Positions 2,768 through 62,310 of a stretch of 64,000 nt of DNA are shown here, piece by piece. The first letter of the stretch is position 1; every line of letters begins with the position of its first letter. The notes beneath the pieces are model-generated. The model worked only from the letters and a program-made list of their open reading frames with translations, searched no databases and had not been told where the DNA came from. The DNA comes from an uncultured Acidobacteriota bacterium (GTDB lineage Bacteria; Acidobacteriota; Thermoanaerobaculia; Gp7-AA8). Location of the stretch: contig CAWGHO010000001.1 in assembly GCA_963822445.1 (NCBI GenBank), positions 1,408,001 through 1,472,000 on the forward strand, read 5' to 3'. Both the position numbers and the translations under genes were made by a program.

Positions 2768-2845
2768 GTTGCGGGGTTACGAGGTTACGGGGTTACGGGG
2801 AAGTTTTTGAAACCCCGTAACCTCGAAACCCGCAACCCCGCGACC
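2768..2845. repeat. Inverted tandem 8-mer hairpin, GRGGTTAC family, copy 1
   Basis: GTTGC GGGGTTAC GAGGTTAC GGGGTTAC GGGG, spacer, then CCCCGTAA CCTCGAAA CCCGCAA CCCCGCGA. Confidence 0.85.
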
Positions 2846-2847
2846 TA

Positions 2848-3702
2848 CTACTCAGCGTCCTTGATCGTCACAGGCCCGTTCACGGTCGAGATCCGCACGG
2901 TCTGCGGGCCTCGTCCGAACTCGAACTTGCGCGGCTCATCGTCGTCGTCGTTCCAGTCGGAGCGATTGCGACGTACCTGCCCACCGCATGCTTCGGCTCT
3001 GCATGAGATGGGGCCCCGGCCGTGCGCCTCGACGAGCACGCCGGAAGCGAAGGTTGGAGAGACCTTCACACTGAGCGGACCGTTGCTGGTCGACGCGTCG
3101 AGAGTGCCGCCCTCCCAGGAGGCGCCGTCGAGCGTGACCGAGATCGGTCCGTTGGACGCTTTCACTTTCATCGTGCCCGAGCCGCCGTCGATGGAGATCG
3201 GGCCGTTCGTGGTCACCGCGTCGACGTTGCCGCCGACGTTGTCCAGAGCCAGCGGACCGTTCTTCAACCGCACGACGAAGTTGCCGTCGATGTTGCGGAG
3301 AGAAAGCGGGCCGTTGCGGCTCTCGATGTCGAGGGAGGCGCCGTTCGGGGCGCTGATCCGGTAGGCGACGTTCCAGTCCTTGTGGTCCGGACCGCGGGTC
3401 ACCAGCTCGCCGCCTTCGACGGCGACATGGATGTCCCTGAGGTCCGCGGCGTCCGCGGCGGCCTTGCAGACGGTGATGGTGTAGGTGCGGGCGTTTCCGC
3501 CCTTGATGGCGACCGGCGCATTCGTCACTTTCACCGAGCGCAGGCTCGGTGCGTCGAACGTCTCTTCGGCAACATGCCCCGGCCGGCCGTCGAACCGGAA
3601 TCCGCGGCTCGTGCAGTCATCGCCGTCGACGTTGTTCCATCCGTGCGCGTACGCGCTCGTGGCAAGCAGGGTAACGGCGAGTGTCAAAACCAGACGTGGC
3701 AT
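2848..3702 (-). CDS. Secreted DUF4097-like beta-strand repeat protein
   Basis: Signal peptide followed by repeated (S/T)xNGP(I/L)xV units. Confidence 0.8.
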   Translation of the reverse strand: MPRLVLTLAVTLLATSAYAHGWNNVDGDDCTSRGFRFDGRPGHVAEETFDAPSLRSVKVTNAPVAIKGGNARTYTITVCKAAADAADLRDIHVAVEGGELVTRGPDHKDWNVAYRISAPNGASLDIESRNGPLSLRNIDGNFVVRLKNGPLALDNVGGNVDAVTTNGPISIDGGSGTMKVKASNGPISVTLDGASWEGGTLDASTSNGPLSVKVSPTFASGVLVEAHGRGPISCRAEACGGQVRRNRSDWNDDDDEPRKFEFGRGPQTVRISTVNGPVTIKDAE

Positions 3703-3729
3703 GGGTGCGATCCTCCCTTTTCGAAGTCA

Positions 3730-3757
3730 TAGACGTGAGATCGGGAGGAAAGTTAGA
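3730..3757 (-). promoter_or_regulatory. Candidate ECF sigma promoter (AAC-N16-CGTCTA)
   Basis: Minus strand reads tctAACtttcctcccgatctcaCGTcta, upstream of the SD GGGAGG of the DUF4097 gene. Confidence 0.55.
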
Positions 3758-3778
3758 AACCGTTACAATTCGCGGATC

Positions 3779-4606
3779 ATGAAAAACGGACTCTTCGCGG
3801 TGGTGGTTGTTCTCGCTGCGTCGGCCGTGGCCCCTGCAGCGGTCGCGGCTGACTGGTATGCGCAGTACGAAAAAGGCGTGCGGCTGATCGAACAGGGCAA
3901 CGCCGCCGAGGCGAAAACGGCGCTCGAAGCGGCCCTGGCTGCTCGCCAGGCGGAAGGAGTGCAGGTCCCGACCCGCACCCACCAGTACACCGACTACCTC
4001 CCGCACCTCTATCTCGCCATCGCCAGCCAGATGACCGGCGACGTCGAGGCGGCCCGGAAGCACCTGGCCATGGCCGAAAGCTCGGGCATGGCCGCGAAAA
4101 GCGAAGTCGGACGGCCGCTTCTGGTCGCGTATCAACTCCTTCTTCGCGGCGACGGCGCCGGCAAGTTCCCGCGCTATGCCGTGTTCGAGAAGAAAGCGCC
4201 CGTGCTGAGCGAAGCCGATTTCACGATGCTCCGCAACGACGTGCTCATGAAGTGCGACCTGCCCGCCGACACGAAGATGAGCAACGCGCCCTGGTACGCG
4301 AATTACGAGCTCGGCCTCGAGCTGGAGCGCAAAGGCGATTACCCGCGCGCGCTCACGCACTTCATCGACGCCGTCGCCCAACGCCCAAACCCCCAGAAGC
4401 AGGCCCGCATGTACGGGATGTGGCTGATCGACTACTACCCCTACTTCCACATCGCCCGCGCCCACACCCGCCTCGAAAACTGGCAATGCGCGAAGAATGC
4501 TCTCGACATCTCCCAGCGCCTCGGCGAGATCCCGAACAGCTCACCGGAGATGAACGAGTGGCTTTCGTTGCAGCGGGAGACGGAGCGGCGGTTGGCGGAA
4601 AAGTAA
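3779..4606 (+). CDS. Secreted TPR-like helical protein with an internal duplication
   Basis: Signal peptide; the unit WYA.YE.G...DY.P..(L/I)A occurs twice. Confidence 0.7.
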   Translation: MKNGLFAVVVVLAASAVAPAAVAADWYAQYEKGVRLIEQGNAAEAKTALEAALAARQAEGVQVPTRTHQYTDYLPHLYLAIASQMTGDVEAARKHLAMAESSGMAAKSEVGRPLLVAYQLLLRGDGAGKFPRYAVFEKKAPVLSEADFTMLRNDVLMKCDLPADTKMSNAPWYANYELGLELERKGDYPRALTHFIDAVAQRPNPQKQARMYGMWLIDYYPYFHIARAHTRLENWQCAKNALDISQRLGEIPNSSPEMNEWLSLQRETERRLAEK

Positions 4607-4614
4607 GCGTTGGC

Positions 4615-4702
4615 TCTGGACTGCGGCGGCAGAGCCGCCGCTCTAGACGCCGCGGCGATGCCGCGGCAAGTGAAAGCGGCAGCTCTGCTGCCGCAGTCCA
4701 GA
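4615..4702. repeat. REP/REPIN-like composite palindrome
   Basis: 28-bp arm TCTGGACTGCGGCGGCAGAGCCGCCGCT and its near-perfect inverse flank a central GCCGCGGC-gat-GCCGCGGC hairpin; lies between convergent genes. Confidence 0.75.
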
Positions 4703-4703
4703 A

Positions 4704-8267: not shown

Positions 8268-9530
8268 TTACTGCGTGCGCGTGGTCGCCGTGGCCGGCAC
8301 GGAGCCGGTCGTTCCGGTGGTGTCGGTGGTGCTCGTTGGGGCGCCCTGTGGCGCCGAGCCGGCCATCGGATCGACGACACCCTTGAGGATAGTCGTGTTG
8401 TTGCGGACCTCGAGGATCGCCAGCTTCTTGCCGATCGGGTTGCGGTCCGGGCCGAGGGTGATGATGCCCGTGACGCCGGTGAAGTTCGCCGTCTTGGCAA
8501 TCTCGTCGCGCAGCTTCGGACCGTCGGTCGCGCCCGCGCGCTTGATGGCCTCGGCCAGAACACGCGCCGAGTCGTACGCCAACGCGGCGAGCGAGTCCGG
8601 CTTCGCGCCGAAGCGTTCCTGGTACTTCTGTACGAACTCGCGCACGGCGGGCGCCGGATCGTCGACGTGGTAGTGGTTCGAGTAGAAGCAGCCGTCGAGC
8701 GCCTTGCCACCGATCTCGAACAGCTTCGGCGACTCCCAGCCGTCGCCGCCGGCCAGAGGCTGCGTCATGCCGAGGTCGCGGGCCTGGATGGCGATCTGTC
8801 CGATCTCGTTGTAGTAGCCGGGAATGAAGATGACCTCGGGATTGGTGGATTTGATCGTGGTGAGCTGCGAGCGGAAGTCACTGTCGCCCTGCGCATAGCT
8901 CTGCTTGCCGACGATCTGTCCGCCGTTGGCGAGGAAGACGCGCTCGAAGTTCGCGGCCAAGCCGGTCGAGTAGTCGCTCTTCACGTCGATCAGGACCGCG
9001 GCCTTCTTCATGCCCAGTTGCCGGGACAGGTAGTTGGCCATGGCTTCGCCCTGGTACGGGTCGATGAAGCACATGCGGAAGATGTAGTCGCCGACCTGGG
9101 TCACCTTCTCGTTGGTCGACGACGGCGTGATCATCGGGACTTTGTTGTTCTGGCAGATCGGCGCCGCGGCGAGTGAGCTCGACGACGCGACTTCGCCGAG
9201 GATGGCCACGACCTGGTTCTGGGAGATCAGTTTGGTGACAGCGTTTGCCGCTTCCTCTGCCTTGGACTGGTCGTCCTCAGTGACGACTTTGATCTTGCGG
9301 CCGCCGACGCCGCCCGAGGCGTTGATCTCGTCGATCGCGAGCATGATCCCGTTGTGGGTCGACTGGCCGAACGTAGCCTGGCCGCCGGTGAGCGAACCGT
9401 ACTCGCCGACGAGGATCTCGCCGCCGCCGGCGTCGGCACTCGAAGCGCCGGTGCTTTCGGTTTTGGGCGGGCAGCCGAGGAAGGCCAGAGAGAGGATGAG
9501 CGTCAGGACAATCAGCAGTTTGTTGCGCAT
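8268..9530 (-). CDS. livK: Branched-chain amino acid ABC substrate-binding lipoprotein
   Basis: Lipobox-like FLGC, LivJ/K-type motifs, Thr-rich C-terminal tail; first gene of the liv operon. Confidence 0.9.
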   Translation of the reverse strand: MRNKLLIVLTLILSLAFLGCPPKTESTGASSADAGGGEILVGEYGSLTGGQATFGQSTHNGIMLAIDEINASGGVGGRKIKVVTEDDQSKAEEAANAVTKLISQNQVVAILGEVASSSSLAAAPICQNNKVPMITPSSTNEKVTQVGDYIFRMCFIDPYQGEAMANYLSRQLGMKKAAVLIDVKSDYSTGLAANFERVFLANGGQIVGKQSYAQGDSDFRSQLTTIKSTNPEVIFIPGYYNEIGQIAIQARDLGMTQPLAGGDGWESPKLFEIGGKALDGCFYSNHYHVDDPAPAVREFVQKYQERFGAKPDSLAALAYDSARVLAEAIKRAGATDGPKLRDEIAKTANFTGVTGIITLGPDRNPIGKKLAILEVRNNTTILKGVVDPMAGSAPQGAPTSTTDTTGTTGSVPATATTRTQ

Positions 9531-9600: not shown

Positions 9601-11787
9601 ATGTCCCGGGCTCCCCTTCTCCCCGTTTTGCTCCTCGCGCTCGCCCTTCCCGGTTCGGCTTCGATCGTGGCCGGACCCGAATCTCAACTGACGTCACCGG
9701 TCGTCGAGGCGGCCGCGTTCAAGCAATCACGCGCGCGCATCGCCACCGACGGCGACGGCTTTCTCACGGTCTGGGTCGAAGGCAACTGGTCCCGCAGTGC
9801 GATTCATGGCGCACGGCTCCTGGCGGACGGCACGACGGTCGGCGAGACGCTCCAGATCGCCGCGGCACCGAGTTATGAGCCGGGCGCGGACGTCGCGTTC
9901 GGCGGCGGCCGTTATCTCGTGAGCTGGTCGGAGCTCGGCGAGGGCGTATTCGCCCGCTTCGTCGAACGCGACGGAACGATGACCGCGCCGTTCCGCCTTT
10001 CCGAGCCCAGTCCCGGCACCGCGCACCGCGCCCCGCGGATCGCGTTCAACGGCCGGCTGTTCCTCGTGGCGTGGCGCGCGAACGCGGAGCGCGCGGGTCT
10101 CGGCGCGGCGCTGGTGAGCCCGTCCGCGGGTCTCGTGAAGACGATCGATCTCGGCAGCGCGGAAGGCTATGTCGATGACTTCGCCCTCGCCGCCGCGGAC
10201 GGCTCGTTCTACCTCGCCAGCTCGCGGTTCGACGTCATCGACCGCGACGTCACCGTGACGAAGATCGAAGAGGACGGATCGTTCTCCGCGCGGCAGACAG
10301 TGGCGCCCGGCGGCCTACAAACGTCGAGCGTGCTCGGTATCTCCGGCGATGAGAATGCCCTCCTCGCATGGACCACGGTCGCCGAAAATTCGGTGCGCAC
10401 GATTCACAGCTTCCGCGCCGGCGCCGGCGGCATCGGGCCGGTCGAATCGTTCGACATCGGCTTCGATCAACTCGACGCGCTCGTGGCCGATCACTCGGGT
10501 CATCTGATCATCTTCGGCAGCGCGATCTCGCGAAAGGCGCAGCGCGCCGGCACAACCGAGACATTCGAGATCTCTTCCCCGCCGCCGAGCTCGCGAGTCG
10601 ACGCCGGTGCGACCGGCGCGGCCGGAACAGTGCTCGTCTCGGAGACGATCGCCGTCGATCATCCCGAGGAATACGATCTTTACGCTCATCGCATCGGCGA
10701 GGAGAGCTTCGAGCCGCTGGTCACCGCCGAACGGCATCAGACCGCTCCGGAAATCGCGGCGGCCGGATCGACGCGGCTCGCGGTCTGGTCGGAGTGGAAC
10801 GCGACGGAGCGGAAGCGTGTGATCGCCGCGGCGCGCATCGACCGCAACGGGGTCGTGCTCGACCCGGTCGCGATCGAGGTCGCGGAGACGAGCGGATATC
10901 GCCTGCCGCAGCCGCGCGTCGCATCGAATGGCTCGCAGTGGCTCGTGATCTGGATCGACAAAGGCACGCTCAAAGCCGCGCGCGTGTCGCGCACAGGGCG
11001 GCTGCTCGACGAGACGCCGGCGACCATCGCCTTGTTCGTCGTTTACTCGGACGACGTCGAGGTCGCGTGGGATGGCAGCTCGTACGTCATCGTCTACATC
11101 ATCGGCACGCCGACACGCCTCGGCGCGCAGATGAATGTCATCGCCGCGCGCGTTTCGGCGGAGGGCGAGGTTCTGACGCCGTACTCCGTGCTGTCGCCGA
11201 ACGGGGCCTACTTCGAGCCGGCCATCGCTGCCGGGCCGTCAGGCTCGCTGGTGGTCTGGACGGCGACGGTTGCCGGGCGAACCGAGGGGGCGTTGCTGTC
11301 GCGGACGGGGACGGTGACGCCGATTGCTTTCCCGCGGGACGGCATCGCTGTTCGCTACGCGGCCGTCGCGTGGAACGGCGACACGTTCCTCGTGGCGGCG
11401 CCGTTTGCGGACGGCGCGATCCGCTGGTTTTTCGTCAGCGAGACCGGCGTGGTGACGGCGGCGCCCGCGCTCACCTCGCTGCCATGGGCGATGCCGGAGA
11501 CCGCGCGAATGACCGCGGTCGAAGTGCAACCGCACGGCGACGGCTTCCTGCTGACGTATGTGAATGAAGGGACGATCGTCGCCGCGGTCATCAACCGCGC
11601 GGGTTACGTCGAAGAGCTGCCGGTGGTGGTCGCGCGGCTCAATCCGCAGGAGAAGAGCTTCGGCATGAGCGGATCGACGATCGTGTACGCGCGGCAGACC
11701 GACCCGGTGCACGATCTGCTCTCGCGCATTTTCATGAGAGAGCTGAAGATCGTTGTTGATCCGCCGCGCAGACGTACGGTGCGTTAG
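9601..11787 (+). CDS. Large secreted beta-propeller-like repeat protein ending in PPRRRTVR
   Basis: Signal peptide MSRAPLLPVLLLALAL; repeated P.(V/I)A..G..(F/Y)LVxW blades. Confidence 0.7.
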   Translation: MSRAPLLPVLLLALALPGSASIVAGPESQLTSPVVEAAAFKQSRARIATDGDGFLTVWVEGNWSRSAIHGARLLADGTTVGETLQIAAAPSYEPGADVAFGGGRYLVSWSELGEGVFARFVERDGTMTAPFRLSEPSPGTAHRAPRIAFNGRLFLVAWRANAERAGLGAALVSPSAGLVKTIDLGSAEGYVDDFALAAADGSFYLASSRFDVIDRDVTVTKIEEDGSFSARQTVAPGGLQTSSVLGISGDENALLAWTTVAENSVRTIHSFRAGAGGIGPVESFDIGFDQLDALVADHSGHLIIFGSAISRKAQRAGTTETFEISSPPPSSRVDAGATGAAGTVLVSETIAVDHPEEYDLYAHRIGEESFEPLVTAERHQTAPEIAAAGSTRLAVWSEWNATERKRVIAAARIDRNGVVLDPVAIEVAETSGYRLPQPRVASNGSQWLVIWIDKGTLKAARVSRTGRLLDETPATIALFVVYSDDVEVAWDGSSYVIVYIIGTPTRLGAQMNVIAARVSAEGEVLTPYSVLSPNGAYFEPAIAAGPSGSLVVWTATVAGRTEGALLSRTGTVTPIAFPRDGIAVRYAAVAWNGDTFLVAAPFADGAIRWFFVSETGVVTAAPALTSLPWAMPETARMTAVEVQPHGDGFLLTYVNEGTIVAAVINRAGYVEELPVVVARLNPQEKSFGMSGSTIVYARQTDPVHDLLSRIFMRELKIVVDPPRRRTVR

Positions 11788-13233
11788 AGGTTCACCCAGA
11801 CGCTCTTGGTCTGCGTGTACTTCTCCAGCGCGTCGCGACCCTGATCGCGGCCGAATCCCGACTCCTTGAATCCACCGAAAGGCAGGGCCGGGTCGTACAG
11901 GTTGTACGTGTTCACCCAGACCGTTCCGGCCTTCAGCGCGCGCGCGATCTTGTGGGCCTTCGACACGTCGCGGGTCCAGACCGCTGCGGCGAGTCCATAG
12001 ACCGTGGCGTTGCCTTTGGCGACGGCATCATCGGCGTCTTTGAAGCGGATCGTGGCCAGGACCGGGCCGAAGATTTCTTCGCGGGCGATGCGATGGTCGG
12101 CGTCGACGTCGGTGAAGATCGTCGGCTTCACGAAGTAGCCCTTGCCGGTGCCGATGTCGGTGCGCTCGCCACCGGTGAGCAGCGTTGCGCCTTCGCTCTT
12201 CCCCGCTTCGATGTAGGAAAGCACGGTGTCCATCTGGTCTTTGGAGACGATGGCGCCGAGGCGGGTTTTGGGGTGGAGGGGGTCGCCGGCGACCATCTTC
12301 GAGGCCCGCTCGGCGACTTTTTCCATGAACGCGTCGTGCACCGATTCCTCGACCAGCAGGCGCGAGCCCGCGGCGCAGACTTCGCCTTTGCCGTAGAAGA
12401 TCGCGTTGAGCGCACCGCGCGATGCCGCTTCGAGATCGGCGTCTGCGAGGACGATGTTCGGGGACTTCCCGCCCAGTTCGAGGGAGATCTTTTTCAAGCG
12501 TTTTCGACGCGCGGGCCATGAGCTGCCGTCCCACTTCCGTCGAACCGGTGAAGGCGATCGCGTCGACGCCGGGATGATCGACGATCGCGTTGCCGACCAC
12601 GCTTCCGCGGCCGGGAATCACGTTGAGCACGCCCGCTGGCAGGCCGCACTCTTTCGCGTACTCAGCGAATTTCAGAAGGGAGAGCGAGGTGTTGGATGCC
12701 GGCTTGATGACGACCGTGTTTCCGCACGCCAGCGCAGGCGCGATCTTCCAGACCGCGAGCATGAGCGGGAAGTTCCACGGAGTGATCGCGCCGACGACAC
12801 CAACCGGCTCGCGCAGCGTGTACGTGAAAGCGTTGTCGGCGACGGGAATCGTGTCGCCGGTGACTTTCCCCGACCAGCCCGCGAAGTAGTAAAGGCACTC
12901 CGCGGCCGCGGGGGTGTCGACGAACTGCGATTCGAAAATCGGCTTGCCGTTGTCGATGGTCTCGATGCGCCCGATCTCGTCCGCCTTCGCGGTGAGCATG
13001 TCCGCGATCCGCCAGAGCACTTTCGCGCGGTCGCGAGGCTTCATCTTCTGCCACTCCGACCCCGGTTCCATCTGCGCCCGCGCGGCCTTCACCGCCGCGT
13101 CGACGTCTTCCGGACCGGCGGATGCAACATCCGCGATCTTTTCCTCGGTCGCAGGGTTGGTGGTGGCGAACGTCTCGCCGGATTGGGCGTCGGTGAAGTC
13201 ACCGTTGATGAAGAGCTGGGTTTGCATGGTCAT
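11784..13233 (-). CDS. Aldehyde dehydrogenase (frameshift near 12497, likely a sequencing error)
   Basis: ITPWNFP, FTGSTEVG, LELGGKSP, catalytic Cys in GEVCAAG and EEIFGPV, spread over two frames. Confidence 0.9.
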
Positions 13234-14339
13234 TTCGCTGCGACTTCCTCGACATACGGCGTGATCTCGAAGTTCTTCACGTACATCGCGTGGATCTCTT
13301 CCATCTCCGCATCGGTCAGCGGTGCGTGTTCGGATGCGGCGGCGAACTCCTCGATCTGCTCTTCGTCGTAGATGTTCGGCAGCGCGGAGACGATCGACGG
13401 ATGGGCGTAGAGCCAGAGCAGCGCGAGCTGGCCGATGGTTACGCCGCGGTTCTCGCAGAGCGGTTTCAGGCGCTCGACTTTCTGGATTCCTTCGACCAGC
13501 CAGGAGCGCGGACGGTGGGAGCGGTGGTCGCTCTCGTCGAACTTCGTGTCGATCGTGTACTTGCCCTCGAGCATGCCCGAGGAGTGGGTGACGCGGATGA
13601 GGAACTGCGGGCCGGCGTCCGACTTCCATGCGCGGAACTCGGGCTCGAACGCGCTGGTGGTCTCGCACAGCCGCTTGCTGGTCTCGCCCTGCATCGCACC
13701 GGCAACCGCGCCGTACGACGCCCCGCGCTCGGCGGCGAGCATGAACTCGCGTCCCGGATCCTGCTCGAGGACGTTGTAGATCATCTGCGTGACTGGCGCG
13801 CGGCGCACGGCGGCGGAGTAAATCCCCTCGTCGCGCCAGCCGATGGCGGGACCGAGCGACGGACCGTAGGAGAAGATCTTCCCCTCTTCCTTCAGCCGCT
13901 CCAGCGTTTCCCAATGCTCGTCGGTGAGCAGCGTGGTGACGCGCGGGTTGTGCGGCTGATAGATCGCGACGTGATCGGTGCCGAGCCGCTTCAGCGACTG
14001 CTCGAGCGCGAAGCGGACGAACGCCGGCGAGAAGTCCTGGGGCAGCTCGCGCTGGCCGCGGGGACGCTCGGGATTGTTGTAGAAGTCGTAGCCGAACTTC
14101 GTGCCGACGGCGAGCTCGGGATGATCTTTGAGGATCGGCGCGAGGACGGTTTCGCCGCGGCCGTTGCCGTAAGCGTCGGCGGTATCGATGTAGTTGATGC
14201 CGCGAGCGATGGCCGCGCGGATGATGCGCTGCGCGTCGTCGTCGGTGTACGTCCCCCACCAGCCGGTGGTGACGGTCCAGGTGCCGAAGCCGAGCTCGGA
14301 AATCGCGATGTCGGTGCCGTGCAGGTTGCGATATCTCAT
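13230..14339 (-). CDS. Aldo/keto reductase
   Basis: GFGTW, DTADAYG, GTKFG, LEQSLKRLGTD. Confidence 0.9.
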   Translation of the reverse strand: MRYRNLHGTDIAISELGFGTWTVTTGWWGTYTDDDAQRIIRAAIARGINYIDTADAYGNGRGETVLAPILKDHPELAVGTKFGYDFYNNPERPRGQRELPQDFSPAFVRFALEQSLKRLGTDHVAIYQPHNPRVTTLLTDEHWETLERLKEEGKIFSYGPSLGPAIGWRDEGIYSAAVRRAPVTQMIYNVLEQDPGREFMLAAERGASYGAVAGAMQGETSKRLCETTSAFEPEFRAWKSDAGPQFLIRVTHSSGMLEGKYTIDTKFDESDHRSHRPRSWLVEGIQKVERLKPLCENRGVTIGQLALLWLYAHPSIVSALPNIYDEEQIEEFAAASEHAPLTDAEMEEIHAMYVKNFEITPYVEEVAAK

Positions 14340-14343: not shown

Positions 14344-14417
14344 GGGTTTCGAGGTTACGAGGTCGCGGGGTTACGGGGTACCCACCTCGTGACCCCGTAA
14401 CCTCGTGACCCCGTAAC
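14344..14417. repeat. Inverted tandem 8-mer hairpin, GRGGTTAC family, copy 2
   Basis: GAGGTTAC GAGGTCGC GGGGTTAC GGGG ... CCTCGTGA CCCCGTAA CCTCGTGA CCCCGTAA. Confidence 0.85.
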
Positions 14418-14427: not shown

Positions 14428-15229
14428 TCAGCGGCCGGAGAATTCCGCCTTTCGCCTCTCGTTATACGCCGCCAGCCCTTCCTTCGCATCGTCGCTCTGG
14501 AAGAGTTGCTGCTGCAGCTCGCGCTCGAGGGCAAGACCGGATTCGATGGGAATCTCCCAGCCAGTCTGCACGGCGCGCTTGATGCGGCCGACCGCTTTCG
14601 CCGCCTTGTTCGGCGGGCAGAAGCTCCAGGCGTACTCCATGACCCGGTCCCACCACTTCTTCCCGTCTTCCTCGGCCGGCCAGACGTAGTTCACCACGCC
14701 GAGCTCGCAGGGCTTTTTCGAACTCGTGCAAGCCGCCTTCGACCATCAACTCGATCGATTTCGTTTTGCCGACGAGGCGCGAGAGCCGCTGCGTGCCGCC
14801 CGTACCGGGGAGAACGCCGAGGTTGACTTCCGGGAGGCCCCATTTGCCGGAGCCCTTGAGGGCGATGCGGATGTCGGCGGCGAGCGCGATCTCCAGTCCG
14901 CCGCCGACGGTGTGCCCGTTCAGCGCGGCGATGACGAGCTTCGGCGTCTGCTCGAGCCGGTTCATGGTCTCGTTCGCGTGCAGGCAGAAGTAGTACTTGA
15001 ACTGCGGCGTGACCTCGGAAAGCATCTTGATGTTCGCGCCGGCGGAGAAGAACTTCTCGCCCGCGCCGCGCAGCACGATCACGTGCACTTCGTCGTCCAT
15101 CCGCGCGCGCAGGATGCAGTCATCCAGCTCGCGGTTCATCTCGTAGGTGTAGGTGTTCGCGGGCGGATCGTTCAGCTCGAAGATCGCGACGCCCTTTTCA
15201 ACGCGGTAGTCGATGAGGGTTCCAGCCAT
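14428..15229 (-). CDS. Enoyl-CoA hydratase/isomerase family protein, BoxC-like (frameshift near 14710)
   Basis: FFSAGANIKML, GGGLEIALAADIR, GLPEVNLGVLPGTGGTQRL; the C-terminus is in a second frame. Confidence 0.85.
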
Positions 15230-16955: not shown

Positions 16956-18504
16956 ATGAGCCATCCACGAAGAGGGTTCTTTCGACGATCGCCATCGTCA
17001 TCGCGTCGGTGGCTTTCGGCATCCTCATCAGCGCCGACCTCGGCCTGATGCCGAAATCGAAAGCACAGACGGTCACCAGTCAGCCATCCGGCGCCTCGGT
17101 CCCGTCCGTCACCATCCCGTCATTCGCCGACGTCGCCGCGCGCGTCATGCCCGCGGTCGTCTCGATCCGGTCCACCGAGATCGTGAGCGAGCAACCAGCG
17201 CCGCCGCAAGTTCGGCATCGACCCGTTCGAGTTCTTCTTCCCCGATCCGCAGAATCCGAATCGGCGCCGCAGCCCGCAGGAGCGCGAGAGGAAGAGGAAG
17301 AGCGCCGCCAGGAAAGCGGCGGCTCGGGCTTCATCATCTCGCCCGAGGGACTACATCCTCACGAACAACCACGTCATCGAAGGCGCGACGCAAGGTCGAA
17401 GTCCACTACGGCGCCGACGAGAATGGCAACGGCGGCCGGACCATCGAAGCCAAAGTCGTCGGACGCGATCCTGCCACCGACACGGCCCTCCTGAAGATCG
17501 ACACCGAGCCAGCCGCTCCCCTTCATCCGCCTCGGCGACTCCGACCGCATCCGCAAGGGTGACTGGGCCATCGCCATCGGCCATCCCTTCCAGTTCGAGA
17601 ACACCTCACCGTCGGCGTGATCTCGGCGAAGGGCCGCTCGCTCTGCCTGAGCCGCGAGACGCAGTCCTTCGAGAACTTCATCCAGACCGACGCCGCGATC
17701 AACTTCGGCAACTCCGGCGGCCCGCTGCTCAACATCGCCGGCGAAGTGGTCGGCATCAACACCGCCATCCGCGGCGGCGCGACCGGACTCGGATTCGCGA
17801 CGCCGATCAACACCGCCAAGATCCTTCTGCCTCAGCTCAAGGAAGGCAAAGTCATCCGCGGCTACCTCGGCATGAACATCACCGATGTCAGCCAGGAGAT
17901 CCAGGAAGCGTTCGAGCTGCCCGAGGCCCGCGGCGCTCTGGTGCAGTTCGTCGAGCCGGGCAAGCCTGCCGAGAAGGCCGGCATCAAGCCGGGCGACGTC
18001 ATCATCGAAGTCGACGGCAAGCCCATTCGCAACAACCGCGAGCTGATCGACTACATCTCCTACCAGCCGGTCGGCAGCGACGTTCGCATCACGCTGCTCC
18101 GCGAGGGCAAGCGCCAGACCGTCTCGGCCAAGACCGCGCAGCGGCCGCTGGAGACCGATGACGAAGAGGAAAGCAACAGCGAGACGCCGTCCGAACCGGT
18201 CCGCAACAAGCTCGGCATGTCCGTGCAGAATCTGACGGCCGAACTGCGGCGCACGTACAACATCCCGGCGAGCGTCTCCGGCGTCATCGTCACCGACGTG
18301 AAGAACGTCTCGCCGGCCGGCGAGGCGAACATGAACGAAGGCGACGTGATCAGCGACGTGCAGGGACAGCGCGTGAACAACGTCGAAGAGTTCCGCGCCG
18401 TCACCGATCGCCTGCGAGCGGGCCAGCGCGTGCGCATGTACGTGACCACGCCGACGCGCACCGGCGCTCCGATCTCGACTTATCGAATTCTGCAGGTACC
18501 GTAA
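16956..18504 (+). CDS. htrA: DegP/DegQ (HtrA) serine protease with two PDZ domains (several frameshifts)
   Basis: GSGFII, TNNHV, IQTDAAINFGNSGGPL, two PDZ domains; SD AGGAGG. Confidence 0.9.
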
Positions 18505-21244: not shown

Positions 21245-21597
21245 CTACTTCCGATGCGTGACTTCACCTTCGTCGAGATCCCGCCGCGCACGTAAAAATC
21301 GCCTTCCACTTCGAGAAACCGCGGATCGATGGCCTCGATGACGTCGTTGGCGATGCGGTTCGTCACCGCCTCGTGAAACGCGCCTTCATCCCGATACGAC
21401 CAGAGATAGAGCTTGAGCGACTTCAGCTCCACGCATTTTTGATCGGGCGTGTAGCGGATGCGGATGGTGGCGAAGTCGGGCTGCCCGGTCATCGGGCAGA
21501 GACAGGTGAACTCCGGCGCCTCGAACGCGATCTCGTAATCGCGCTCGGGGTTGGGGTTGGGGAAGGTGTCGAGGGAGCGGGAGGGCTTGGTCGTCAT
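21245..21597 (-). CDS. queF: NADPH-dependent 7-cyano-7-deazaguanine reductase
   Basis: [31 protein letters not shown]; 3' frameshift. Confidence 0.93.
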
Positions 21598-21602
21598 TTG
21601 TC

Positions 21603-26338: not shown

Positions 26339-26424
26339 GTCGTTAGTGATTAGTCGTTAGTCGTTAGTAGAACCGGACGTTCTTGACCGGTTCTACTCAT
26401 CACTAACGACTAACGACTAACGAC
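26339..26424. repeat. Inverted tandem 7-mer hairpin, GTCGTTA family, copy 1
   Basis: (GTCGTTA/GTGATTA)x4 GTAGAACCGG-acgttcttga-CCGGTTCTAC TCATCAC (TAACGAC)x3. Confidence 0.9.
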
Positions 26425-35998: not shown

Positions 35999-36034
35999 AG
36001 GCTCAAAGGCGCAAAGGCTCATAGGTTCACAGGG
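35999..36034. repeat. Half element, AGGCTCAA 8-mer family
   Basis: AGGCTCAA AGGCGCAA AGGCTCAT AGGTTCAC with no inverted arm. Confidence 0.7.
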
Positions 36035-40363: not shown

Positions 40364-40438
40364 AGGCTCAGAGGCTCAAAGGCGCAGAGGCTCAAAGCTT
40401 CTCTTTGCGCCTTTGAGGCTTTGAGCCTTTGAGCCTTT
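40364..40438. repeat. Inverted tandem 8-mer hairpin, AGGCTCAA family
   Basis: AGGCTCAG AGGCTCAA AGGCGCAG AGGCTCAA AG-cttct-CTTTGCGC CTTTGAGG CTTTGAGC CTTTGAGC. Confidence 0.88.
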
Positions 40439-43108: not shown

Positions 43109-43996
43109 TCAGGCGAAGGAAGTCTCGATGCCCTGCCCGAACGCGATCCCTGCCTCTTCCCGCTGCGTCGCCGTCGCGCGGAGCAGCTTGGCCACGAACG
43201 CCGAGTGCATGGCGTGGCCGGCGCGATGGGCGGTGATCTCGCCGGCGATCGGCGCGCCAACCAGGGCCAGATCGCCGATCAGGTCGAGGATCTTGTGACG
43301 GACGAATTCGTCCTTGAAGCGCAGAGGACCGTTCATCACGCCGCGGTCGTCGAGGACGATCGCGTTCTCGACCGATCCGCCGCGGGCCAGGCCGGCCGCG
43401 CGGAGCTTCTCGACGTCGCGCATGAAGCCGAAGGTGCGGGCCGGGGCGATCTTTTTGAGGAAGTTGTCGTGGCCGAAATCGAACTGCATCGACTGCCGGC
43501 CGATGACCGGATGATCGAAATCGATGCGGTATTTGATGATCAGACGGTTGGAGGGAACGATGCGGATGCTCTTTTCGCCTTCGATAATCTCGACCGGCTC
43601 GCGAAGACGCAGGACGGGGATCTCGGTGCCGAGGTCGCGGACGCCGGCGGCGTCGATGAGGTGCATGAAGGGAAGGGCGCTGCCGTCGATGATCGGGACT
43701 TCCGGGCCATCGATGCGGATGTCGACGTCGGTGATGCCGCAGGCCATGATCGCGGCGAGTAGATGCTCGACCGTGCCGACCTGCACGTCGTCTTTGCCGA
43801 CGGTGGTGGCGTGATCGAGGGCGGTCGTCGACGCCTGCAGCGCCGGGATGCGCAGACCGTCGAGGTCCGCGCGGACGAAGGTGATGCCGGTGCCCGCGGG
43901 AACGGGGTGAAGCTCGACGGTGGTGTAGATGCCTGAATGGAGACCGATGCCGGTGATGCTGACGTCGGTGTTGATGGTTCTGCGTTGAACGAACAT
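43109..43996 (-). CDS. lpxC: UDP-3-O-acyl-N-acetylglucosamine deacetylase
   Basis: GIGLHSG, TVEHLLAA, ARTFGF, EFVRHKILDLIGD. Confidence 0.97.
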   Translation of the reverse strand: MFVQRRTINTDVSITGIGLHSGIYTTVELHPVPAGTGITFVRADLDGLRIPALQASTTALDHATTVGKDDVQVGTVEHLLAAIMACGITDVDIRIDGPEVPIIDGSALPFMHLIDAAGVRDLGTEIPVLRLREPVEIIEGEKSIRIVPSNRLIIKYRIDFDHPVIGRQSMQFDFGHDNFLKKIAPARTFGFMRDVEKLRAAGLARGGSVENAIVLDDRGVMNGPLRFKDEFVRHKILDLIGDLALVGAPIAGEITAHRAGHAMHSAFVAKLLRATATQREEAGIAFGQGIETSFA

Positions 43997-44010
43997 GCGG
44001 TCAGGCGTAG

Positions 44011-44026
44011 AGCGAGGCCAGTGCCA
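44011..44026 (-). promoter_or_regulatory. Sigma-54 promoter candidate for lpxC
   Basis: TGGCACTGGCCTCGCT; predicted +1 about 4 nt before the ATG. Confidence 0.6.
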
Positions 44027-44133
44027 CGGAGACCTCTTGACCGCGAATCACACCTAAGCCTCGCACTTGCCGCGTTTAAGTGATTCCGAGCGACGCGCTG
44101 GAAGCATCACTTCTGTCGCCTCTCCAGGTCACG

Positions 44134-44155
44134 ACTGTGGTTGGGGAACCACAGT
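44134..44155. promoter_or_regulatory. Perfect palindrome, candidate enhancer (UAS)
   Basis: ACTGTGGTT-GGGG-AACCACAGT, about 110-130 bp upstream of the sigma-54 motif. Confidence 0.45.
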
Positions 44156-44158
44156 GCG

Positions 44159-44251
44159 AGTCGTTAGTGATTAGTCGTTAGTGATTAGTAGACCGAAACC
44201 GGAGCCTGTGCCTCGGTTCTACTAACGACTAATCACTAACGACTAACGACT
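44159..44251. repeat. Inverted tandem 7-mer hairpin, GTCGTTA family, copy 2 (overlaps the smpB stop)
   Basis: (GTCGTTA GTGATTA)x2 GTAGA...GGTTCTAC TAACGAC TAATCAC TAACGAC TAACGAC. Confidence 0.9.
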
Positions 44252-44713
44252 GCCTTTCATCGCCTGCGCGGCCTCGCGATCGGCCTCGCGAGTGCGCTCG
44301 GTCTCGCGCTTGTCGTACTGCTTCTTCCCGCGAACGATGGCGACCTCGGTCTTGACCCGGCTGCCCTTGAAGTAGAGACGCAGGGGAACGACGCTCAGCC
44401 CCTTCTCGACGGTCTGCACGCGCAGCTTCTCGATCTCGTTCTTGTGCAGGAGCAGCTTCCGGAGCCGCTCCGGCTCGTGATTCTGGAGATTGCCGTGCGA
44501 GTAGGGAGAGATGTGCGCCCCGAAGAGGAAGGCCTCGCCGTCCTTGAAGATCACGTAGGCGTCCTTCAGGTTGGCTTTCCCGTCACGCAGGGCCTTGACC
44601 TCGGTCCCGGTGAGCATGAGCCCGGCCTCGAACTTCTGCACGATGAAGTAGTCGTGCAGCGCTTTCTTGTTCGAAGCAATGAGTTTCTCGCCCGAATCGG
44701 GCTTGGCGGCCAT
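44243..44713 (-). CDS. smpB: SsrA-binding protein
   Basis: NKKALHDY, EAGLMLTGTEVK, RKLLLHK, GKKQYDKRE. Confidence 0.98.
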   Translation of the reverse strand: MAAKPDSGEKLIASNKKALHDYFIVQKFEAGLMLTGTEVKALRDGKANLKDAYVIFKDGEAFLFGAHISPYSHGNLQNHEPERLRKLLLHKNEIEKLRVQTVEKGLSVVPLRLYFKGSRVKTEVAIVRGKKQYDKRETERTREADREAAQAMKGSR

Positions 44714-44725
44714 GGGCGGGCGATT

Positions 44726-45115
44726 CTAGTCGATGTACTCGATGCGGGCGGCGTGGCCGGAGGAGTTGGCGAGGCGGCGGTCGCGGGTGAGGAGGGGGAT
44801 CTGGAGCCGCTCGGCAAGCGCCACGTAGCTTGCGTCGTAGGCAGTGACGTTCTTGCGCAACTCCCAGATGCGATTGAGGAGCAGGACGTGACTGAAACGC
44901 TCAATGTGAAACGACGCGTAGATTGCCACGGCCTCGCGCAGATCCGCTTCGCTTGCTCGCGCTTGCACCGCAGAGTTCCGAAGACTGTGTAATACCTCGA
45001 GGTCGATCAGGTGGGGCGCGACGGCCTCTCCACTCACGAGTACACCGAGGAGTTCACGGGTGCCGAGACCGAGCAACGCGTGGATCACGGCCGACGAATC
45101 AACGACGACCGACAT
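44726..45115 (-). CDS. vapC: PIN-domain VapC-like toxin
   Basis: VVVDSSAV, APHLIDLEV, TAYDASYVALAE, LLTRDRRL. Confidence 0.9.
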   Translation of the reverse strand: MSVVVDSSAVIHALLGLGTRELLGVLVSGEAVAPHLIDLEVLHSLRNSAVQARASEADLREAVAIYASFHIERFSHVLLLNRIWELRKNVTAYDASYVALAERLQIPLLTRDRRLANSSGHAARIEYID

Positions 45116-45374
45116 CCTTCAGCCAACTCTCCATCTCCGTTTCGCGCTCCTCGCGGCCTTGTCGAATCAACTCCGCCGCGTCAAGACCGGCAAACAGCGG
45201 CGCACGCCGCGCCATCCGCTCGATCAACTCTTTCTTGGTGAAACGCGGCCTCGTCTTTTCCCACTCCTGGTACAGGTAGTCCGGAAGCGACAACCCTGCC
45301 TCGGCAGCGCGCGCCTTGAGGGTCTCGTATGTTTCCTGCCGCTCGTTCGCGATCGGAGCGATCTTGCTGCTCAT
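45099..45374 (-). CDS. Ribbon-helix-helix (FitA/VapB-like) antitoxin
   Basis: LKARAAEAGLSLPDYL; overlaps the toxin start. Confidence 0.8.
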   Translation of the reverse strand: MSSKIAPIANERQETYETLKARAAEAGLSLPDYLYQEWEKTRPRFTKKELIERMARRAPLFAGLDAAELIRQGREERETEMESWLKDVGRR

Positions 45375-45466
45375 GACGCATACGTTGAACCTCCCGCACC
45401 GCGCTGTCAAATCCCCTTCTGCTATCATCCGCGCCCGATTTTCTTCTGTAGAGGAGCTTCCCCCTC

Positions 45467-46525
45467 ATGACTAAAAAGAACATCGTGCACGTGGTCGGCA
45501 CGGGCACTATCGGTGAGCCTCTGATCGGGCTCTTCACCGACTTCAAGGACAAGTGGGACATCGACGAGGTCACGTTCCACAAGCGCACGCCGGCCGCCAC
45601 GGATCGCGCGATGGTCGAGCATCTGATCAACCGCGGGGGCAAGCTCGTCGCGGATGAAGGGGCGCGCGACGAGTTCGCGCGGCTCGGTCATCGGGTCGCA
45701 TTCACGACCGAAGAGGCGTTGGAGCGGGCCACGGTCGTCGTCGATTGCACGCCGGCCGGCCTCGACAACAAGGCCAAGTACTACGACCACATCAAAGGGC
45801 CGAAGGGCTACCTGGCCCAGGGCTCGGAGTTCGGCTTCGGCAAGCCGTACGCGCGCGGCATCAACGACGAAGTGCAGAACCCCGACGACCGGTTTGTGCA
45901 GATCGTCTCCTGCAACACCCACAACATCTCCGTGCTCCTCAAGACCCTGGCCTCGGTCGACGGCAAGATCAGCCTCGTCGCCGGCCGTTTCGTCTGCATG
46001 CGCCGGGCGAATGACGTCAGCGACACGAAGTCGTACATCGCCGCACCGGAAGCAGGGAAGCACGACGATCCCGAATTCGGCACGCACCACGCCCGCGACG
46101 CCTACCACGTCTTCCAGACCCTCGGCGAAAAGCTCAATCTGTTCTCGTCGGCGATCAAGCTCCCGACGCAGTACATGCACACCCTCTGGTTCGATCTCGA
46201 GCTGAAGCACGACACGACCCTCGAAGAGACCAAAGCCGCGCTGCGCAACAATCCGCGCGTGGCCTGCACGGCCAAGCGGGCCGTGAACCAGATCTTCTCC
46301 TTCGGCCGCGATCACGGCTATTTCGGCCGAATCCTTTCCCAGACCGTCGTGCCGATGTCGACGATCAGCGTGCCGTCGCCGCGCAAGATCGTCGGCTTCT
46401 GCTACACCCCGCAGGACGGCAACTCGCTGCTCTCGTCGATCGCGGCGACGCTGCGTTACCTCGACGCTTCGAAGCTCGACGAGCGCCTCGACGTGCTGCG
46501 TCCCTACATTTTCCGGGAGATCTAG
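45467..46525 (+). CDS. Archaeal-type (type II) glyceraldehyde-3-phosphate dehydrogenase-like protein
   Basis: VVGTGTIG, VVDCTP, QIVSCNTH and THHARD, matching the type II GAPDH SCNT and SHHG motifs. Confidence 0.7.
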   Translation: MTKKNIVHVVGTGTIGEPLIGLFTDFKDKWDIDEVTFHKRTPAATDRAMVEHLINRGGKLVADEGARDEFARLGHRVAFTTEEALERATVVVDCTPAGLDNKAKYYDHIKGPKGYLAQGSEFGFGKPYARGINDEVQNPDDRFVQIVSCNTHNISVLLKTLASVDGKISLVAGRFVCMRRANDVSDTKSYIAAPEAGKHDDPEFGTHHARDAYHVFQTLGEKLNLFSSAIKLPTQYMHTLWFDLELKHDTTLEETKAALRNNPRVACTAKRAVNQIFSFGRDHGYFGRILSQTVVPMSTISVPSPRKIVGFCYTPQDGNSLLSSIAATLRYLDASKLDERLDVLRPYIFREI

Positions 46526-60310: not shown

Positions 60311-60312
60311 AG

Positions 60313-60404
60313 GCAGTGATTAGTGGTTAGTCGTTAGTGGTTAGTAGAACCAGCCGTCCTAACGACTAATCACTAACGACTAGTCACTAACCACTAACGA
60401 CTGC
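60313..60404. repeat. Inverted tandem 7-mer hairpin, GTCGTTA family, copy 3
   Basis: GTGATTA GTGGTTA GTCGTTA GTGGTTA GTAGAACC, spacer, then six CTAACGA-like units. Confidence 0.9.
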
Positions 60405-60405
60405 A

Positions 60406-61041
60406 TCAGCCGCCCTGCTTTTCCCGGTTCACCGCGTTCAGGCTCGCGTAGAGCCGTTCGTGCACGGTGAGCGCATCGCGGTAGATCTGCGGAAACTGCG
60501 GCATGTCCTTCGTCGCCACGACCAGGTTCACGCCGTAGAGAAACGCCGCGTTCCCGTCCAGCGTGCGCAGGTTATCCGCCACCAGTACGAAGAATGACTT
60601 CCGCCGGTCGACGGGAGTGAGCGAGATGATCGCCGCCATCGCTTCGAGAGGCGGCGGCGTGATCTGCGGCGGATTGATGAAGACGACGTGCGGATACTCC
60701 TGCATGTAGTACTCGCGAGCCTGGCGCGCCTCGGCGTGATAGACCGGCAGATAGCCGATGAGCTTGGCCGCCTGACGCAACGCCGCGTCGTCTTTTCCGA
60801 CGATCAGCGCTTTCTCGCCGAAGTCATTCGCGTGATCGTCATCGTCCGCCGCTCCAGCAGCGCTCTGCGGCTGCGGCGTTTCGACCGGAACGGCCGGCCC
60901 GCCCGCTCCCTCCAGGTTGCGCCGGTCGACAGTGACCTTGGCCTTGCACACCGGGCAGGGAAAGGAGACCTCGCGCATGGGCAGCTTGGTCTCGTCGAGC
61001 GAGAGCGGCTTCTGGCAACTCGTGCAGTTGATCTTGATCAT
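60406..61041 (-). CDS. Zinc-ribbon (MJ0042-like) domain protein
   Basis: MIKINCTSC...CPVC; directly downstream of pilT. Confidence 0.78.
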   Translation of the reverse strand: MIKINCTSCQKPLSLDETKLPMREVSFPCPVCKAKVTVDRRNLEGAGGPAVPVETPQPQSAAGAADDDDHANDFGEKALIVGKDDAALRQAAKLIGYLPVYHAEARQAREYYMQEYPHVVFINPPQITPPPLEAMAAIISLTPVDRRKSFFVLVADNLRTLDGNAAFLYGVNLVVATKDMPQFPQIYRDALTVHERLYASLNAVNREKQGG

Positions 61042-61043
61042 CG

Positions 61044-62191
61044 CTACTCCAGCATCGAACATCGATGTCCTGGTCCGGCTCCGGTGCCCCCTCGGGCTCA
61101 TCGGTCATGCGCAGGGCCAGGTTGGTGGGATTCGTCGCGTACGCCATGGCCGTCTCTTTCGAGATCATCTTCGCGTTCCACATCTTCTCGATCTCGTCGT
61201 CGAAGGTCTGCATGCCGTCGACCTGCCCGTCATGCATGGCGTCGGTGAGCGAGCGTCCCTTCCGACTCCCCTTTCATGACGTAGTCGCGCGTGCGCATGG
61301 TCGACTTGAGGATCTCCAGCGCGGCCACGCGGCCGCCGCCGATCTTCGGCAGCAGGCGCTGGGAGATGACGTAGCGGAACGACTGCGAGAACCGCGTGCG
61401 GATCTGCGGCTCCTGATCTTTCGGGAAGACGCCGACGATGCGGTCGATGGTCTTGGCCGCGTCGATGGTGTGCAGCGTGGAGAGCACGAGGTGGCCCGTC
61501 TCCGCCGCTTCCATGGCGATCTCGATCGTCTCCACGTCGCGCATCTCGCCGATGAGGATGACCTTCGGCGCCTGGCGCAGCGCGGCGCGCAGGGCGAGCG
61601 AGAAGGTCTTGGTGTCCGCGCCCACCTCGCGCTGGTTCACCGTCGACTTCGCGTGCTGGTGCATGTACTCGACAGGGTCCTCGATGGTGATGATGTGGTA
61701 GGCCTGCTCGTGGTTGATCTCGTTGATGATCGCGGCGAGGGTCGTGGACTTGCCCGAGCCGGTGGGGCCGGTGACGAGCACGATCCCGTTCTTCAGCTTG
61801 GCGATGTTGTAGATCTCGTGCGGCATCCCCAGCTGCCTCGACGCGTGGGGATGCCCTTCGGGGATGACGCGCAGGACGATCGGCGTACGTGCCGCGCTGC
61901 GAGAAGATGTTCACGCGGAAGCGGGTCTTCTGCGGAATCGAGTAGGAAAGGTCGACCGAGCCGTTGCTCATCAGCGTGCGGGTGAGCTCGCGATCGCCGC
62001 GCAGCATGTGCATGGCGATGATCTCGGTCTGGAACGGCGTGAGCCGCGGCAGGCCGGGAAAGTTCACCGGCACCAGCTGGCCGTCCACTTCGACCTGCGG
62101 CGGCGCGCCCGACCGAGAAGTTGAGGTCGGATACCCGGTCGGAGATCTTCAGCATCGCCTCGAGAATGGCGTCGAGATTGAAATTTTTCAT
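61044..62191 (-). CDS. pilT: PilT/PilU-family ATPase (frameshifted)
   Basis: [44 protein letters not shown]. Confidence 0.9.
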
Positions 62192-62221
62192 GGCGGGAAG
62201 CCTCGGCGGAGCATTGTAACG

Positions 62222-62310
62222 GGTAGGCGGTTGGCGGTAGGCAGTAGGCGGTGGATAGAATCGCGGCGTTGTCAGACTCCCGCCTACCGCCTGCCGCCTA
62301 CCGCCCACCG
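62222..62310. repeat. Inverted tandem 7-mer hairpin, GGTAGGC family
   Basis: GGTAGGC GGTTGGC GGTAGGC AGTAGGC ... CGCCTAC CGCCTGC CGCCTAC CGCCCAC. Confidence 0.88.

Follow-up and report, generated by a model that had tools for sequence, protein, structure and literature searches.

Hairpin elements with heptamer or octamer arms at gene junctions of a Thermoanaerobaculia lineage

The window analysed here is a 64,000-nt stretch of contig CAWGHO010000001.1 (positions 1,408,001 to 1,472,000) from an uncultured Acidobacteriota bacterium of the Thermoanaerobaculia. At its gene junctions lie hairpin elements built from about four degenerate tandem 7- or 8-mers, a short spacer and about four copies of the reverse complement. 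These elements are clade-wide, bound to junctions, multi-copy within genomes and subject to rapid turnover, and they have a fixed polarity, with the G- and purine-rich arm 5′. The explanation that we favour, and to which we give about an even chance, is that they are repetitive extragenic palindromic (REP)-like elements whose arms are microsatellites, heptameric or less often octameric, and that they are copied between sites and remodelled by slippage.

Elements in the window and in related genomes

A first-pass annotation of the window had listed eight such elements, and all eight read as it described them: seven full hairpins and one half element (Table 1). Tandem Repeats Finder (TRF) reported period-7 or period-8 arrays at all eight sites, and of the window's 25 longest inverted repeats, 20 were parts of the seven full elements. 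TRF arrays of period 5-12 were searched for a reverse complement in their vicinity. This detector paired 13 arms among 18 period-7/8 arrays in the real window, and none among the 333 period-7/8 arrays of 100 dinucleotide-preserving shuffles; it revealed no element in the window beyond the eight already known. When the seven full elements were folded as single-stranded DNA, z-scores from -5.1 to -9.3 were obtained, and 0 of 200 shuffles folded as well. The annotation had also proposed that a single geometry is shared by several unit sequences (four groups in the window) and that the elements occupy junctions of every orientation, and both statements hold. Pfam agreed with its gene names, namely amino acid (AA) permease, aldo-keto reductase/enoyl-CoA hydratase (AKR/ECH), phosphoribosyltransferase (PRTase)/response regulator, MutL/UPF0102 (YraN), sigma-54 regulator/NtrY-like kinase, LpxC/SmpB, pseudopilin/Zn-ribbon and PilT-like/RuvX. 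A search of the whole window against Rfam at gathering score returned one tRNA (38850-38922) and no match to an element.

Table 1. Elements of the window (positions are those of the window; z, fold of the single-stranded DNA against shuffles; ORF, open reading frame)
Position	Type	Unit family	Arms, loop or stem	Context	Fold z
2768..2845	full, 8-mer	GGGGTTAC/GAGGTTAC	arms ~2768-2800 and 2809-2845, 8-nt loop	between AA-permease start (2744, minus) and stop of ORF 2848-3702 (minus)	-6.11
14344..14417	full, 8-mer	GGGGTTAC/GAGGTTAC	arms 14344-14379 and 14384-14417	within ECH-AKR gene pair (minus), 5 nt upstream of called AKR start codon	-5.09
26339..26424	full, 7-mer	GTCGTTA/GTGATTA	inner stem GTAGAACCGG..CCGGTTCTAC	PRTase/response regulator junction, divergent	-8.75
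35999..36034	half, direct array	AGGCTCAA/AGGCGCAA	downstream partner weak	just 3′ of mutL stop	-2.05 (weak; 9/200 shuffles fold as well)
40364..40438	full, 8-mer	AGGCTCAA/AGGCGCAG	5-nt loop	entire gap from NtrY-like kinase stop to 5 nt before sigma-54 regulator ATG	-6.53
44159..44251	full, 7-mer	GTCGTTA/GTGATTA		first unit (minus strand) is the last codons and stop of smpB (AGT CGT TAG, 44240-44260); 5′ of conserved small hairpin and sigma-54-like motif upstream of lpxC	-9.30
60313..60404	full, 7-mer	GTGATTA/GTGGTTA/GTCGTTA		fills gap of two convergent stops (plus ORF end 60310; minus Zn-ribbon ORF end 60406)	-7.80
62222..62310	full, 7-mer	GGTAGGC/GGTTGGC		PilT-like/RuvX junction, divergent	-5.50

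The window's MutL plus 10 kb of flank was used as a query for genome contigs, which gave 80 loci (designated by L numbers). The 20 best matches (62-87% MutL identity), from metagenome-assembled genomes (MAGs) of many projects labelled Thermoanaerobaculia or Acidobacteriota, formed the close set, and the remaining loci (other Acidobacteriota, Bacteroidales and others) served as natural controls. The window and the close set together comprise 428,543 bp. In this DNA we detected 183 arrays of period 5-12, 74 of them of period 7, and 48 arms with a reverse-complement partner (34 of period 7, seven of period 8, four of period 9, and one each of period 6, 11 and 12). After merging, there were 22 full 7/8-mer elements, seven from the window and 15 from relatives; four further elements had other unit lengths, and three lay in other Acidobacteriota. 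Period-7/8 arrays occurred at 2.19 per 10 kb in the close set (41 paired arms), at 1.12 per 10 kb in 22 other Acidobacteriota loci (six paired arms), and at 0.16 per 10 kb in 34 non-Acidobacteriota loci, where no arm was paired. The annotation had allowed for there being very few such elements, and in fact many were found across the clade. An exact search for the window's 7-mer family found it in none of the 80 loci, and element 44140-44270 gave no blastn match among 72,556 plasmids.

Period-7 arrays were mostly intergenic (46 intergenic, three at a boundary and 25 "coding", with ORF calls covering 84% of the DNA), in contrast to arrays of period 6 (two intergenic and 27 coding) and period 9 (five and 20). 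Among the 60 non-coding arrays the modal number of units was four (29 of 60), with three copies in 15 arrays, five in three and six in five; the mode of arm length was 30-31 nt. The same build was also seen with units of 23 nt (L017 ~8870-9070), 9 nt (L001 12229-12335 and L017 12812-12879) and 6/12 nt (L004 3163-3270), so that the architecture is not limited to 7/8-mers, and 11-nt units share it as well. Two direct arrays were noted outside the close set. L031, another Acidobacteriota MAG, carries AGGAGTC 32 times in tandem at 11926-12152, and in L054, a Bacteroidales MAG, a TAGTGGT/TAGTGAT array starts at a stop codon (4636-4667). The alphabet of the latter is that of the window's 7-mer family, which may be a coincidence; a GTGATTA heptamer repeat of Helicobacter pylori is quoted in PMC4692102 (here, as for the other two papers cited below, we refer to part of the text).

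The many split genes of the window and its doubtful base-level quality could point to a read or assembly artefact. The same architecture, however, occurs in MAGs of many independent projects and contig-naming styles, at homologous junctions and between conserved flanks. Because the same build is present in assemblies from so many projects, we treat an artefact as excluded, with practically no probability left to it. We conclude that the elements are genuine genomic DNA of a Thermoanaerobaculia lineage. The split or truncated genes themselves were located at 11784-14259, 14428-15229, 17617-18504, 21386-23075, 23242-24321 and 61165-62088; the halves of an aldehyde dehydrogenase lie in two frames, ECH and the PilT-like gene are each divided into two ORFs, and dihydroorotase, HtrA and a PilT-like T2SSE fragment are partial, which suggests either an indel-rich assembly or many pseudogenes.

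Turnover at orthologous junctions and copies within genomes

As the annotation had anticipated, orthologous junctions turned over. Empty sites or other unit families were present at the ntrY-ntrX gap, upstream of mutL and at the smpB 3′ end, and distant relatives did not share identical sequence. The gap between the NtrY-like stop and the regulator ATG (ntrY-ntrX), which in the window is the site of the 40364 element, was compared in eight genomes. It is empty in five (3-6 nt, or overlapping genes) and filled in three (window, L009 and L019), in each case by an element that starts directly after the stop and with a different unit; the window insert bears no likeness to the 3-6-nt empty site. 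Between the regulator (ntrX) stop and a conserved GGAATAG-like motif before a tRNA, four of eight genomes are filled, with four different units, and the other four, the window among them, are empty. Upstream of mutL, 20 genomes could be compared: six have full elements (L001, L002, L004, L010, L012 and, in degenerate form, L016), four have direct arrays (L006, L007, L009 and L011) and ten have none, and at least eight different units are present among the ten filled genomes. The interval from the smpB stop to a conserved small hairpin is filled in three of six genomes (window, L009 and L012) and empty in L004, L013 and L019; L005 has an array upstream of lpxC, but its smpB neighbour is unverified and it was left out of this count. 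At the PRTase/response-regulator junction the window is filled, and L004 and L015 are empty. Filled and empty sites were compared in pairs for the ntrY-ntrX gap, for the 3′ end of ntrX and for the site upstream of mutL, and no target-site duplication was visible.

Sister species on a quick MutL tree share some of their units. The sisters L004 and L010 both carry GAGAATT upstream of mutL, with different copy numbers, and in L010 the 3′ arm has been homogenised for a variant that is missing from the 5′ arm. The sisters L009 and L012 both carry GACAACY at this site; at the ntrX 3′ end their units are identical at five of seven positions and lie between similar flanks, and at the smpB site their units are unrelated and of different length. 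L014 has no array upstream of mutL, where L009 and L012 have arrays, but perhaps retains a one-unit remnant. The sharing between sister species, together with the sites at which they differ, implies that units are inherited vertically among close relatives, and that over greater distances they are replaced or are gained and lost.

When sites sharing at least four 9-mers were taken as one family, 20 unit families were obtained from 39 non-coding sites, a count that omits some elements hidden under over-long ORF calls. Clustering at one mismatch or less chained unrelated units to the extent that chance predicts, and was dropped. Families are multi-copy inside one genome and differ between genomes. 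The window's heptamer family has three copies with a common terminal GCAGT..ACTGC and a common inner stem, and their unit variants differ in number and order. In L010 one family occurs twice within 8.5 kb with an identical 20-nt loop, and in L004 the GAGAATT family occurs twice, 1.4 kb apart; the highest copy numbers of a single family were three in 64 kb (window) and two in 8.5 kb (L010). L009 has one unit family at two junctions (J4, the smpB end, and J5), where its sister L012 has two other units. Many units of the relatives are AGAANNN variants. Variants that differ by one or two bases occur together in single arrays, and hence the alphabets are linked by ordinary mutation. The arms are not strict mirror images: unit variants stand at different positions, and shifted registers still pair well. 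A GGTTGGC-type unit is present both in the window (62222 element) and in L020, beside unrelated genes; the possibility that the L020 element occupies the window's RuvX junction was rejected, its flanking ORFs being unrelated (BLASTP E 0.82; Pfam).

These data bear on a purely local origin, in which a local motif would be expanded by slippage and then duplicated by fold-back or strand switching, with no copying between sites. Arrays do change in place, as seen in L004 versus L010 and possibly in the L014 remnant, direct-only arrays could be precursors, and units of 9, 11, 12 and 23 nt share the architecture. In addition, the end of smpB in L019, ..GGT TAG, is similar to the unit variant GTGGTTA and to the unit that the window has at this site. 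Copies of one family at unrelated junctions of a genome nevertheless share a loop or an inner stem, the window's ntrY-ntrX insert is unlike the empty site, and units follow the genome more than the site (L009 at J4 and J5 against L012). Moreover, a polarity common to 21 of 22 elements is not expected of independent births. On this evidence we consider a purely local origin unlikely.

Other conserved features were noted at the same junctions. A TAnAAT-like -10 box lies 6-8 nt before the mutL start (~34180-34200) in the window and most of 19 relatives; its position suggests that the mutL mRNA may be leaderless. Heptamer elements insert directly upstream of this box. A promoter role for -35-like hexamers of the 3′ arm was rejected, because the spacings do not fit. 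Upstream of lpxC (window ~44000-44155; L004, L005, L009, L012 and L019) a conserved TGGCAC-N5-(T/C)(G/C)CT resembles a sigma-54 -24/-12 promoter, and just 3′ of smpB the conserved small hairpin CTGTGG..CCACAG is followed by TCGTGACC. The heptamer element in the ntrY-ntrX gap of L019 (14182-14418) has a loop of ~130 nt containing another, G+C-rich palindrome, and looks like a nested insertion; related GGGGAGAAGGTGC..GCGGATGAGGGG palindromes lie 3′ of mutL in L014 and L019.

Position, polarity and possible roles

The 5′ arm is the more G-rich in 21 of the 22 elements and the more purine-rich in 20, and the three full elements of other Acidobacteriota have the opposite polarity. At filled junctions the elements begin directly after TGA, TAG or TAA, and the gap to the flanking 3′ end of a gene ranges from -13 to 11 nt in co-directional and convergent cases. 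Some elements supply the stop codon, as they do for smpB in the window and, in L004 and L010, for the dehydrogenase genes. The idea that elements generally carry stops in every frame was discarded: L001 has none, and several elements have stops in 0-2 frames. Where an element lies in an operon gap, 5-7 nt separate its 3′ arm from the following start, although longest-ORF start calls may bias this distance. At the divergent PilT-like/RuvX junction, the conserved N-terminus of RuvX (ILAIDLG) begins at 62311, and the sole in-frame ATG/GTG/TTG starts are GTG 62251 and TTG 62269. Both starts fall within the loop of this element (62222), so that translation of the 3′ arm would add ~14-20 residues to the N-terminus. 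With crude gene calls, any array was present at 9 of 64 divergent, 19 of 185 co-directional and 8 of 63 convergent junctions, and full elements were present at 5 of 64 divergent and 7 of 185 co-directional junctions, so the rate at divergent junctions is no lower.

The annotation had offered RNA processing or stability hairpins among the possible roles. Selected RNA elements, such as RNase III or other processing sites, 3′ stabilisers or stop-start coupling devices, would be in keeping with elements that start at or within a few nucleotides of stops and, in operon gaps, end just before the next start, and with stems of 25-35 bp that fold strongly on either strand. In Xanthomonas, according to the part of PMC4692102 used here, the repeats are mostly transcribed, and transcript ends are enriched at the subset capable of forming G-quadruplexes. 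No strand asymmetry was found, however, either in G-U pairs or in fold energy. The minimum-energy folds of 15 co-directional elements contain 21 G-U pairs in the sense and 22 in the antisense orientation, and the antisense strand folds better by 2.9-9.4 kcal/mol in three window elements (14344, 40364 and 2768) and in L020. Half of the orthologous junctions lack an element, and divergent junctions are not avoided. No U-tail was seen, there being no T-run after the arms of the window elements, and none of the three elements in 35,000-46,000 was called terminator-like, while the hairpin after the tRNA was; membership of the intrinsic terminator class was rejected on these grounds. Selection as RNA elements thus appears unlikely, and it is compatible with the copying of REP-like elements that we favour. 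The tRNA (38850-38922, minus strand; region 38802-38965) has a sigma-70-like promoter, TTGACA-17-TACAGT, and a canonical hairpin plus T-run terminator, which indicates that this genome uses ordinary intrinsic terminators beside the heptamer hairpins.

A second possible role is that of protein landing pads, in which a 7-nt register would be read by a single-strand nucleic-acid binder, such as a cold-shock-type oligonucleotide-binding (OB) fold of which one protein would sit on each heptamer, or by a ring-shaped RNA binder. The strong preference for 7 nt and about four units whatever the sequence would suit such a reader, as would the many pyrimidine arms with TTCT (AGAANNN-type units in at least eight genomes); CspB binds heptamer repeats with one protein per unit, as described in the part of PMC4679880 used here. 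On the other side, at least 20 unrelated units exist, including the window's four, all of which lack TTCT, octamers and longer units share the architecture, and pairing of the arms with each other would hide single-strand sites. We regard landing pads as very unlikely. The main effect of an element is probably that of a long stem-loop in single-stranded DNA or in the transcripts that cross it, rather than that of a sequence-specific signal.

Origin of the elements and comparison with known repeats

The explanation that we favour would operate as follows. Existing elements would be copied to new junctions, or would overwrite residents, by a trans-acting process that leaves no target-site duplication; the leading candidate, unseen so far, would be a Y1/HUH-type single-strand DNA transposase that recognises hairpins. 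The arms may then gain, lose and homogenise 7-8-nt units via replication slippage, so that arrays would stay "young" while the unit drifts. Loops longer than about 4 nt evade MutS. The arms would be kept roughly complementary by strand switching across the palindrome from time to time. Elements would persist only where a hairpin that folds out is harmless, that is, after stops, in tight operon gaps and upstream of short promoters. The stem in the ntrY-ntrX gap would return stop and start to their ancestral distance of a few nucleotides, much as in the split ribosome-binding sites found in genes of phage T4.

Several observations weigh against this explanation. No transposase, reverse transcriptase, HUH protein or RAYT was found among the 68 window ORF queries scanned, which were housekeeping genes or had no family match, in line with the annotation's statement that no responsible enzyme is visible in the window. 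The GTAG tag, counted alone, is not enriched: it lies in or near a 5′ arm in 10 of 22 elements, and shuffled arms gave an expectation of 0.42. Slippage alone does not account for the 7 nt, the approximately four units and the one polarity. The polarity count treats related elements as independent, and since the elements are phylogenetically non-independent, the binomial p of 1e-5 makes the polarity look firmer than it is. The context counts rest on crude gene calls, for which the longest ORFs were filtered on GC3, the G+C content of third codon positions. The MutL tree is a quick one, with 9 of its 22 inner branches open and 11 of 22 starred. Finally, different units at one junction could in some cases reflect drift of a resident element and not new insertion, as at the ntrX 3′ end of L009 and L012.

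The annotation had instead pointed to a dedicated process that builds the elements. On this view a dedicated enzyme would copy a short template over and over and the product would then fold back, so that every element is written anew, with a new alphabet per event. A constant geometry with many alphabets, the arm length mode of 30-31 nt, the fixed polarity and the missing hallmarks of transposons would all be consistent with such an enzyme. Nothing here demonstrates such an enzyme, however: multi-copy families have conserved loops, units are inherited by sister species, arrays contain graded unit variants, and no candidate gene is present in the window. Conserved loops, graded variants and sister-shared units point to copying of existing elements plus slippage, and not to every alphabet being synthesised afresh. 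The observations can be explained without a dedicated builder, which the copied loops and inherited units contradict as the only source and to which we give very little probability.

The architecture itself is already in print, in the closest case known to us: about four tandem heptamers and a convergent inverted copy by stop codons are described for Xanthomonas (PMC4692102). Rehm et al. 2015 reported GGGAATC heptamers, mostly in four units and of unknown function, in X. campestris and X. citri, with 70 to 75 cases per genome of convergent arrays on opposite strands that can form a stem-loop or cruciform (PMC4692102). To judge from that part of the paper, the GGGAATC pairs and our elements have in common intergenic tandem heptamers of about four units with the G-rich arm first, a strong bias to positions that adjoin or overlap the upstream ORF's stop codon, neighbouring genes that are housekeeping in the main, no link to insertion sequences, and a length and sequence that vary between related species. 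The two systems also differ. Xanthomonas has one G-tract alphabet, and its four-unit preference is ascribed to G-quadruplexes (PMC4692102), whereas here at least 20 alphabets exist, mostly without G-tracts (among the window's four families, only GGGGTTAC has them), and octamer units are present as well. According to the same text, 83% of the Xanthomonas repeats keep their gene context between two species and are under-represented between divergent genes (PMC4692102); here around half of the orthologous junctions have no element, units differ, and divergent junctions (9 of 64) are not depleted.

Resemblance to the TAACTGA repeats of Beggiatoaceae and cyanobacteria and to the short tandemly repeated repetitive (STRR) sequences, which PMC4692102 also cites, is looser. 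These are also intergenic tandem heptamers, in two to six copies near gene ends (MacGregor 2015, PMC4679880), several types can co-occur in one genome (Microcystis), and the function is given as unknown. In the portion of that paper used here, however, nearly all are direct arrays (one of 170 sets is inverted in the BOGUAY genome), they are oriented to the downstream start codon, and each lineage has one dominant unit (PMC4679880).

The annotation had held that a shared geometry with different sequences is not what a single IS/MITE or REP family gives, which for REP overstates the case. Some genomes are known to contain several REP families, every one with a transposase of its own. Many REP families are described in the part of PMC3733652 used here, and REP/REPIN with RAYT, which have many copies, are, like our elements, short intergenic palindromes, usually 3′ of genes, with several families per genome, turnover between species and no target-site duplication. 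They differ in being single imperfect palindromes of 20-40 bp with a GTAG or CGTC tag and not tandem arrays (PMC3733652), whereas here GTAG is not enriched and no RAYT was seen in the window. MITEs (miniature inverted-repeat transposable elements) are likewise small, non-coding and dispersed, with terminal inverted symmetry; our elements differ from them in lacking target-site duplications at filled/empty pairs, in having tandem-repeat arms and in that many copies have no internal unique sequence (loops of 0-8 nt). In the literature searched, with subscription-only papers outside its scope, no such elements were found for Acidobacteria.

Cyanobacterial STRR heptamer repeats were described earlier than 2007, and to our knowledge neither these nor the over-representation of heptamers in bacterial genomes has an accepted mechanism or function. 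The over-representation has been noted since 2007, and for the 7 nt the idea of a polymerase footprint is quoted from the same source (ref. 33, as cited in the part of PMC4692102 used here). Since the same geometry, stop position and polarity occur here with about twenty units that are mostly free of G-tracts, an explanation of the four-unit preference must be independent of G-quadruplexes, and the explanation of the geometry is probably independent of sequence as well. What is new here is the many mostly G-tract-free units together with octamers, the much faster turnover and the absence of depletion between divergent genes. It can be imagined that one sequence-independent machine, which would build or copy hairpins at gene ends, has left its footprint in the heptamer register, the arm of about four units (30-31 nt) and the fixed G-rich-first polarity, and that the same process stands behind the heptamers of Xanthomonas, STRR and Beggiatoaceae. 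We consider this quite improbable; if it were true, the many alphabets of this clade would be the first natural series in which the geometry is specified and the sequence is not. The clade offers a sequence-independent test bed for the old heptamer-repeat problem, with new machinery not demonstrated, and its filled and empty junctions and sister comparisons are a ready system for measuring birth, copying, slippage and loss. For genome annotation, it matters that the elements supply stops (smpB), possibly lengthen N-termini (RuvX) and push apart operon genes whose spacing is otherwise 3-6 nt.

A hairpin of another type, not composed of 7/8-mers, was noted in the window at 4613-4702. It has 28-nt arms that are 93% complementary and 32 nt apart, and it overlaps a 26-bp direct repeat.

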